Sequence record: PQ505080.1
Reading direction: 5' to 3' (one strand)
Length of the DNA: 64,000 nt
Origin: Escherichia phage HMD-6
The position numbers were made by a program, and so were the translations under genes. The notes beneath the pieces were generated by a model. That model worked only from the letters and a program-made list of their open reading frames with translations. It was not told the origin of the DNA and did no database searches. This document shows, piece after piece, positions 27,700-27,984 of this stretch (the stretch's first letter is position 1; each line of letters begins with the position of its first letter).

Positions 27700-27984
27700 T
27701 GTTTTCGTGTATCATGATGAATATCCCATTTAAAGATGAGTTTGATGGCTTTATCTCCGGATGCTTTGAAACAGGGTTCGGAGAAGTCTGAGTTCCCCTT
27801 AGAGGGCTTGATAGTGCACCACACTTAAAATGGTAGGGGCAGCCAGCACATGACGATGTGACCCCAGCCAACCTGTAATAAGGTCGAGCCAGAGCGCGGT
27901 AATGGGTATCTGGTAACCCACTTGTTGGGTCTTGCTGGTCCAGGACGCTGGGCAAGTCGCAGGGAATACCACCCTGCGGCGAAC
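27700..27984 (+). other. second GC-rich island without credible ORF, candidate structured RNA or DNA site
   Basis: Three mutually overlapping minus-strand ORFs in the track (stop-poor because GC-rich); perfect hairpin CGCAGGG-AATACCA-CCCTGCG at 27958-27978. Confidence 0.25.

Follow-up and report, generated by a model that had tools for sequence, protein, structure and literature searches.

A GC-rich island of an rV5-like Escherichia phage and its very probable membership in a structured-RNA family shared with T4

What is encoded by a GC-rich interval without a convincing protein gene, lying directly upstream of a small basic-protein gene in a large Escherichia phage? The question concerns positions 27700-27984 of a 64,000-nucleotide (nt) stretch of phage HMD-6 (PQ505080.1), which is called the window below and to which all coordinates refer unless another record is named. 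An earlier note, made from the letters alone, had suggested that this island might be either a structured RNA or a packaging (pac/cos-like) site, and had pointed to a perfect hairpin at its end. The structured-RNA part of this interpretation stands: the island holds a covarying, pseudoknotted element that is common to T4-like phages. The packaging part was not supported, and the terminal hairpin turned out to be lineage-specific. Overall, the segment 27831-27923 very probably belongs, on the plus strand, to a conserved family of structured RNAs.

Architecture and covariation of the element

The heart of the element, as modelled on the plus strand at 27831-27923, consists of two helices (P1 and P2), a 37-nt core and a pseudoknot. 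All lineages follow a common plan, in which P1 encloses a single-stranded segment and usually P2, and is succeeded by a junction of 3-5 nt, the core and the 3' strand of the pseudoknot. In the window, the 5-base-pair (bp) helix P1 (GGGGC/ACCCC, 27836-27840 with 27861-27865) encloses the 5' strand of the pseudoknot and P2; it has four pairs and one C-A mismatch, and the same columns read GGAAC/GUUCC in L147, a contig of a divergent rV5-like lineage. P2 is a hairpin within P1 (CACAU-GACG-AUGUG, 27847-27851 and 27856-27860 on either side of the loop). The junction AGCCA and the core together occupy 27866-27907, and the core itself (27871-27907) reads ACCUGUAAUAAGGUCGAGCC-AGAGC-GCGGUAAUGGGU, an exact match to the family pattern ACCUGUAAUAAGGUCGAGCC-N5-GCGGUAAUGGGU. 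The pseudoknot GCCAG/CUGGU (27842-27846 with 27910-27914) joins the bulge inside P1 to the segment after the core, its 3' strand lying 2-8 nt past the core across the lineages, and a Vequintavirus variant (L114) lengthens it to GCCAGC/GCUGGU without a competing local pairing. The core hairpin P3 (ACCU/GUAAUA/AGGU) is invariant and thus a predicted one, while the helix P4 of the core (GCC../..GGU) received weak support in the model-based count. Two further pairings, a long-range helix of GGGU with a 3' CCC and a helix of the junction CCAGC with a 3' GCUGG, were neither confirmed nor excluded.

The helices change sequence from lineage to lineage and keep their pairing. Apart from the form in L147, P1 occurs as GGGAA/UUCCC, GGGAG/CUCCC, AAAGG/CCUUU, AAAGC/GCUUU, AAAGA/UCUUU, GAAUG/CAUUC and GUGUA/UACAC; in a model-derived alignment of 29 sequences from all lineages, all five of its five pairs varied on both sides and 95.7% of the cells were paired. 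P2 goes from CACAU/AUGUG in the window to CUACG/CGUAG in L147 with an unchanged GACG loop, and reads CCUCAU/AUGAGG or CCUUAU/AUAAGG in the T4-like copies. The pseudoknot partners, found at the equivalent place, are complementary in every lineage: GCCAGC/GCUGGU, UGAGG/CCUCA, CCUG/CAGG, CGCCGA/UCGGUG, ACAC/GUGU, CGC/GCG, CGGAA/UUCCG, CGGUU/AGCCG and AACCA/UGGUU. A fixed MAFFT alignment of 12 T4-like copies, which leaves no alignment freedom, showed three pseudoknot pairs varying on both sides (none in slid controls) and one P1 pair with three pair types. When the pseudoknot segments of eight variants were swapped among each other, 4 of the 40,320 possible pairings matched the cognate duplex energy, which was -58.7 kcal/mol versus -39.1 ± 5.7 kcal/mol. 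In a manual alignment of 27 sequences, 89% of the cells were paired, compared with 25-53% after sliding. The G-U pairs in P2 and the pseudoknot are compatible with the plus strand only; since selection keeps the pairing, G-U pairs included, it acts on plus-strand RNA and not on duplex DNA. The core remains 90-100% identical across lineages while P1, P2 and the pseudoknot covary. The same contrast is seen between the window and L147, where 27801-27900 keeps 82-84% identity although its helices changed compensatorily, as opposed to 46-54% in 27701-27800 and 27901-28000 and 60-75% in the neighbouring genes.

Membership was also assessed by covariance and profile models. The covariance model R1 was built from 12 T4-like copies of type B and contained no rV5-like sequence; its sole match in the 64 kb was 27831-27923, on the plus strand only (39.1 bits, E about 2e-9), and it recovered every other lineage besides. 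R1 gave no match in the orthologous loci of Mydovirus, Seunavirus, Henunavirus, Avunavirus and Certrevirus or in that of A5-4, a Vequintavirinae phage without genus. An nhmmer profile of the core scored members at 45.8 bits at least and everything else at 22.9 bits at most, with one copy per genome, and reached 52.1 bits at 27868-27907 of the window.

The structured RNA is supported by covariation and not by the Rfam scan called for by the earlier note, which returned nothing: none of the 4227 models of Rfam 15, with riboswitches, ribozymes, ROOL, GOLLD, YrlA, tRNA and tmRNA among them, matched in 27700-27984, either at the gathering threshold or at E up to 10. Six T4-like loci and the copies in L142, L184 and L130 were likewise unmatched. 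Searches of full-text literature, among them for the core sequence itself, gave no description of the element, although one large catalogue (PMC10690425), which compiles 8495 candidate structured RNAs of viruses, might list it unnamed. The element is a new sequence and structure family among the structured phage RNAs tied to tRNA (transfer RNA) regions.

Distribution among phages and genomic contexts

A sensitive blastn search of 27690-27995 against 50,697 phage records matched 976 of them. The whole query was covered in 118, and such full-length matches were exclusive to Vequintavirus. About 850 further records, all of them T4-like (Tequatrovirus, Mosigvirus, Dhakavirus, Moonvirus, Jiaodavirus and other genera), matched in a stretch restricted to the 40-45-nt core (window 27864-27908) at 85-95% identity. 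In eight annotated T4-like genomes this match fell into an unannotated gap directly upstream of the gene vs.8, and T4 itself carries the element directly after the denV stop codon (L034 3790-3935, minus strand; about 64,790-64,935 of T4 NC_000866). The annotated T4 vs.8 open reading frame (ORF; 219 amino acids, aa) begins inside the element, and in most T4-like phages Vs.8 begins with MRTFLTG/MKFLTP, about 40 codons further on; the start annotated in T4 probably lies 40 codons upstream of the true one.

In IMG/VR and metagenomes, pattern scans extended the family by the Vequintavirus variants L114, L163 and L175, by the divergent rV5-like lineage L147/L130, whose gene order is the same as in the window, and by the AT-rich contigs L142 and L184. 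The element is also carried by L007, a 96-kb contig of a phage that shows a distant relationship to Pseudomonas phages. Among 80 loci from the metagenome scan, most represented one unrelated gut-bacterial gene and about 20 were true members. Matches of bacterial genomes to the degenerate core pattern (64 loci) were set aside as chance: almost all were the antisense of DnaJ J-domain codons (…KAYRKLA.KYHPD…) and none was a member. A blastn comparison of the core with E. coli genomes gave no match at an E-value limit that would hide short complementarities, so the result is silent on antisense targets. No copy was detected in other genera of the Vequintavirinae and no second one in the window, a neighbouring GC-rich island included, by fuzzy pattern, nhmmer or covariance model. 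As far as sequence tells, the family is present as one copy per genome in rV5-like phages, in T4 and its relatives and in at least three further lineages of large phages. One IMG/VR contig of 120,938 bp (L030) holds a T4-like copy that agrees with the one in phiC120 (L017) at every position of 320 nt, and the record of the Vequintavirinae phage Av-05 is likewise 120,938 bp long; this suggests that L030 is a chimeric assembly of rV5-like and T4-like DNA.

In four of five lineages, the element is located within or next to tRNA arrays. In the window, it heads a unit with seven tRNA genes; in L142 it sits between tRNA-Thr and tRNA-Gly, and in L184 a tRNA and a tRNA-like sequence enclose a 110-nt spacer that it fills completely. 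The tRNA-like sequence, directly downstream of the element (L184 3407-3475, minus strand), scored 26.7 bits, below the gathering score of 29, and with it tRNA or tRNA-like genes stand on both sides of the element. In L007 the element is found about 260 nt past tRNA-Pro, and the 3' strand of its pseudoknot is followed by an intrinsic terminator and then by an ORF, for which assignment as a terminase was rejected, the product being tail-like. The genes downstream are unrelated by lineage: vs.8 in T4-like phages, a gene for a 112-aa protein in the window, the tail-like 629-aa protein in L007 and none for 300-475 nt in L142 and L184. No vs.8 homologue was found in the window, L147, L142 or L184. 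In Mydovirus, Seunavirus, Henunavirus and Certrevirus, tRNA-Cys/Leu/Arg directly precede the homologue of the 112-aa gene and stand where the island does in the window, and in other genera of the Vequintavirinae this homologue is embedded in a tRNA array.

Lineage-specific parts and the surrounding region

Outside the shared element, the island has parts that are confined to its own lineage. A 43-nt 5' block (27793-27835, plus strand), with a hairpin CCCC-UUAGA-GGG (27795-27806) followed by CUUGAUAGUGCACCACACUUAAAAUGGUA, is almost unchanged in the divergent L147/L130 relative to the window and is absent from T4-like copies. The pairs assigned to it by RNAalifold, in an alignment whose L130 row was taken from a wrong coordinate range, are all invariant, and its structure is predicted only. 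The 3' extension (27916-27984, plus strand) is described from minimum-free-energy and alifold predictions: a putative hairpin ACCCA-CUUGU-UGGGU (27916-27930), then a predicted helix CUUGC/GCAAG (27931-27935 with 27952-27956) that encloses a hairpin CCAG-GACG-CUGG (27940-27951). Vequintavirus copies vary in this extension, with a 10-nt deletion in L175 and altered loops.

The perfect 7-bp stem that had been described at the end of the island does exist: CGCAGGG (27958-27964) pairs across AAUACCA with CCCUGCG (27972-27978), and the minimum-free-energy fold lengthens it to nine pairs. It falls, however, in the poorly conserved 3' part of the island and is missing from the L147/L130 orthologue, whose shorter and different tail ends in the hairpin GCUGG-AGACGGA-CCAGC. 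There is no U-tract after 27978 (GGCGAACUUGACA follows), and the terminator scan lists no terminator at this hairpin. The overall folding stability is unremarkable, with z = -1.78 on the plus strand and -1.01 on the minus strand.

By sequence, the source phage of the window is a Vequintavirus of the rV5/FV3 type: the 2.4 kb spanning the island are 95-99% identical to 119 phage records, nearly all of them Escherichia Vequintavirus (rV5, FV3, phages of the BASEL collection). The records with 95-96% identity to this locus include 18 named 'Campylobacter phage' (MG0656xx), which are probably mislabelled or contaminant genomes. The GC content reported for the island was borne out, being 0.509 for 27700-27984 and 0.564 for 27790-27984 compared with 0.435 for the window; 27700-27984 has z = 2.25, and 1.6% of the 285-nt windows are equally GC-rich. 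Upstream of the island lie genes for an RNA ligase, a polynucleotide kinase and a phosphoesterase. Downstream, the gene for the 112-aa protein (28042-28380, plus strand), which has a basic, AT-hook-like N-terminus and does start MADTTKKRRRRGRPLK, as had been noted, is followed by the seven tRNA genes (28477-29289, ARAGORN), spanin-like genes and, 2.4 kb from the island, the terminase large-subunit gene. This last ORF starts at 30393 and is split by a group I intron (30809-31087; 81.4 bits in Rfam) within the segment 30393-31087. The neighbouring genes are all on the plus strand, the same as the RNA. An unusually long, 99-nt tRNA-like gene in the array (28946-29044) was given a 4-base anticodon (atcc) by ARAGORN and 35.5 bits by the Rfam tRNA model; it is tRNA-Lys in the record of a BASEL phage and may hold an insertion or intron.

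Two promoters frame the RNA. A candidate sigma-70 promoter (TTTACA-17-TATCAT, 27687-27715, plus strand) matches 10 of 12 positions in the consensus scan and could initiate the transcript of the RNA near 27722, a function deduced from the motif. L147/L130 instead have a better site farther downstream (TTGACA-16-TATACT, 11 of 12, L147 4579-4606), separated by about 10 nt from the conserved 5' block; these sigma-70-like sites upstream of the RNA sit at different places in the window and L147. The consensus promoter reported to adjoin the terminal hairpin is present at 27985-28013 (plus strand): it is near-consensus (TTGACA-17-TAAAAT, 11 of 12, with an upstream TG as in extended -10 elements), is the top sigma-70 match within 25500-29500 and is kept in L147 at 4784-4812, there too directly after the RNA. 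It would drive the next unit, the 112-aa gene and then the tRNAs, and marks the 3' limit of the RNA gene while lying outside it. Near-consensus promoters with TTGACA and a 17-nt spacer were found at 27374-27402, 27985-28013 and 28390-28418, each preceding a small gene or the tRNA array, and promoter-like sites were commoner than expected (14 versus 8.3 ± 3.1 in shuffles).

Several other features of the region are worth recording. A possible conserved mini-ORF precedes the RNA at 27714-27791 (MMNIPFKDEFDGFISGCFETGFGEV); its counterpart in L147/L130 (about 4548-4574 of L147) encodes MKDEFDGF alone behind a strong AAGGAG Shine-Dalgarno sequence, with the 21 nt for KDEFDGF conserved. The segment may serve as a peptide gene, as a leader or as a signal in RNA or DNA. 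Further upstream, 25589-26230 resembles an origin: a 116-aa helix-turn-helix protein matches the PHROG 'replication initiation protein', and four iterons of 21-22 bp (CTGTCCGTnAnnCGGACAC) at 26005-26098 are followed by a very AT-rich segment at 26100-26230. Next to it is a first GC-rich island (26230-26500, GC up to 0.55), unannotated in most GenBank records and confined to Vequintavirus, which shares a 16-nt box with the second island (GGCCTCCATAGTGCAC in the first, GGGCTTGATAGTGCAC at 27804-27819 in the second). The first island gave no match to the core model and none in Rfam beyond noise, a weak rli43 match at 26022-26318 being discarded as such; it could represent another structured RNA, with no relation to the present one, or belong to the origin.

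Possible roles of the RNA

The tRNA-rich contexts and the unrelated downstream genes favour an RNA that is made with tRNAs and acts as RNA. The explanation we prefer, with some reserve, is that the island encodes a non-coding structured RNA of a new family, which is produced together with the phage tRNAs and functions as the RNA itself. The RNA would arise within long transcripts of the tRNA region; in the window, transcription would begin at the promoter just upstream and continue into the 112-aa gene and the tRNAs. Enzymes that trim tRNAs might then release a compact, stable RNA of about 100-200 nt, whose invariant loops and junctions would form the surface for a conserved partner, be it a protein of the host or the phage, a tRNA or some other RNA. 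The rV5-specific 5' block and the 3' hairpins, that at 27958-27978 included, would be lineage-specific decorations or stabilisers. For the narrower proposal of a stable RNA acting in trans, we put the chances slightly short of even.

Such a life history has precedents. ROOL and GOLLD (RF03087, RF01998) are pseudoknotted structured RNAs of phages and prophages, of unknown function, often located near tRNA islands and possibly co-transcribed with tRNAs (PMC12286853; PMC5737381). The element resembles them in being a structured, pseudoknotted phage RNA associated with tRNA regions; it differs in its size of about 95-200 nt, compared with about 580 and 800+ nt, and in hosts, which for ROOL and GOLLD are mostly Firmicutes, Actinobacteria or environmental. 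There is no similarity in sequence or model either (no Rfam match at E up to 10). A further analogy might be offered by the T4 species 1 and 2 RNAs (rnaC, rnaD), small stable RNAs of unknown function that come from the transcript of the tRNA region and are freed by tRNA-processing enzymes, much as proposed here. The T4 element, in contrast, lies at 64.9 kb between denV and vs.8, outside the tRNA cluster that houses species 1 and 2, which we take to be at about 70 kb. Each T4-like record gave a single blastn place, so that rnaC and rnaD probably lack the core.

A number of observations weigh against this explanation. The global alignments were structure-guided or model-fitted, so their counts lean towards structure; the evolutionarily independent variants number only about 8-10, and the E-values of the model are rough. 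Transcription, processing and action in trans are all steps that we infer. In the window, the terminator scan found no terminator after the RNA. In T4-like phages the element stands away from the tRNA cluster and is tightly coupled to vs.8, in 35 of 38 loci by an automatic rule. It begins there at the stop codon of the upstream gene, and the vs.8 start codon follows 73-83 nt after the GAGCC of the core (in loci whose first long ORF found starts at the conserved vs.8 start); the coupling persists while the Vs.8 proteins diverge to 37% identity. The order of element, terminator and ORF in L007 moreover resembles a transcription-attenuating riboswitch.

This coupling to vs.8 suits a cis-acting leader, that is, a riboswitch or the operator of an RNA-binding protein that would control translation or termination of the next gene, a possibility to be taken seriously but which we regard as unlikely. 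Aptamers typically show a strongly conserved core set among covarying helices and a pseudoknot, and the T4-like element, which lies in a 5' untranslated spacer and keeps a constant distance to a start codon, is like riboswitches and phage operators such as the T4 gene 32 pseudoknot. Unlike these, the core precedes unrelated genes in different lineages and lies behind promoters or between tRNAs in others. A near-consensus promoter intervenes between the RNA and the next gene in the window and L147, so the element would be missing from most transcripts of that gene; L142 and L184 have no ORF in the 300-475 nt downstream of the element and carry tRNA genes on its flanks; and no alternative pairing with an expression platform was found. 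Less probable still is a self-cleaving ribozyme or a processing signal that cuts polycistronic transcripts at this place. The pistol, twister and hatchet ribozymes, which are often found in phage DNA, have a like architecture: a hairpin or internal loop pairs downstream across a highly conserved linker, with variable helices and varied gene contexts. The element is similarly compact, variable helices and a pseudoknot holding its invariant core, and occurs in long transcripts of various kinds: between ORFs in T4, within tRNA arrays, or as the first part of a tRNA operon. Its core is, however, longer (37 nt) and has a hairpin of its own, no cleavage site can be named, and no ribozyme family of Rfam matches even at E up to 10.

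The remaining explanations are very improbable. A pac/cos site bound by the basic 112-aa protein as small terminase would agree with the AT-hook-like N-terminus of that protein, with the terminase gene downstream and with its best PDB match, a small terminase at the non-significant E = 0.06; no significant terminase match was obtained, and its PHROG is of unknown function. The preserved pairing with G-U speaks for selection on RNA, and the same element stands between denV and vs.8 in T4 and in the tRNA arrays of other phages. Other genera of the Vequintavirinae retain the 112-aa gene without the element, and GenBank records of relatives put the locus at arbitrary internal positions. No more credible is the decayed remnant of a tRNA gene, which would be suggested by the tRNAs upstream of the homologous gene in the four sister genera: neither ARAGORN nor the Rfam tRNA model (E up to 10) finds anything in 27700-27984, and strong constraint and sharing with T4-like phages are the opposite of decay. 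A minus-strand protein gene of 104, 93 or 72 aa, as in some annotations, deserves the least credence. The three overlapping minus-strand ORFs reported before are there (27677-27991, 27799-28017 and 27825-28106) and are open in all Vequintavirus copies, one GenBank record even annotating a 72-aa minus-strand coding sequence; yet three frames open simultaneously are an effect of composition, and they are open because the sequence is stop-poor, as the earlier note had held, and not because they are conserved. The island of L147/L130 has no stop-free stretch above 49 codons, the ORFs match nothing in Pfam or PHROG, and they extend into the promoter and the beginning of the next gene. A conserved coding frame in homologues, which would have spoken against a structured RNA, was looked for at 15 loci and not found: the antisense frame through the core spans 22-98 codons, without a conserved start and with unrelated flanks. 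In Vequintavirus genomes, several of the short ORFs annotated over the island are probably spurious.

A bolder reading would see in the core the active centre of a new class of RNA traded horizontally among large virulent phages, either a self-cleaving ribozyme or an RNA that docks to tRNA or to a tRNA-directed host factor. We consider this unlikely. In the docking version, the host factor could possibly be an anticodon nuclease, a processing or modifying enzyme or the ribosome, and the RNA would protect or manage the tRNA supply of the phage. If a new class is indeed involved, T4 holds an unrecognised functional RNA under the mis-annotated start of vs.8.

A core of roughly 40 nt is nearly fixed across unrelated phage families, among Straboviridae, Vequintavirinae and at least three uncultured lineages, amid covarying helices and nearby proteins that diverge to 37% identity, which points to strong shared selective constraint and probably to horizontal exchange. 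Similar signatures led earlier to riboswitches, ribozymes, ROOL and GOLLD. The element is present in T4 and also in rV5, FV3 and the BASEL collection, these last being in wide use for therapy and typing, and is therefore readily testable. It adds another case of a structured RNA in phage tRNA regions, a pattern that recurs.

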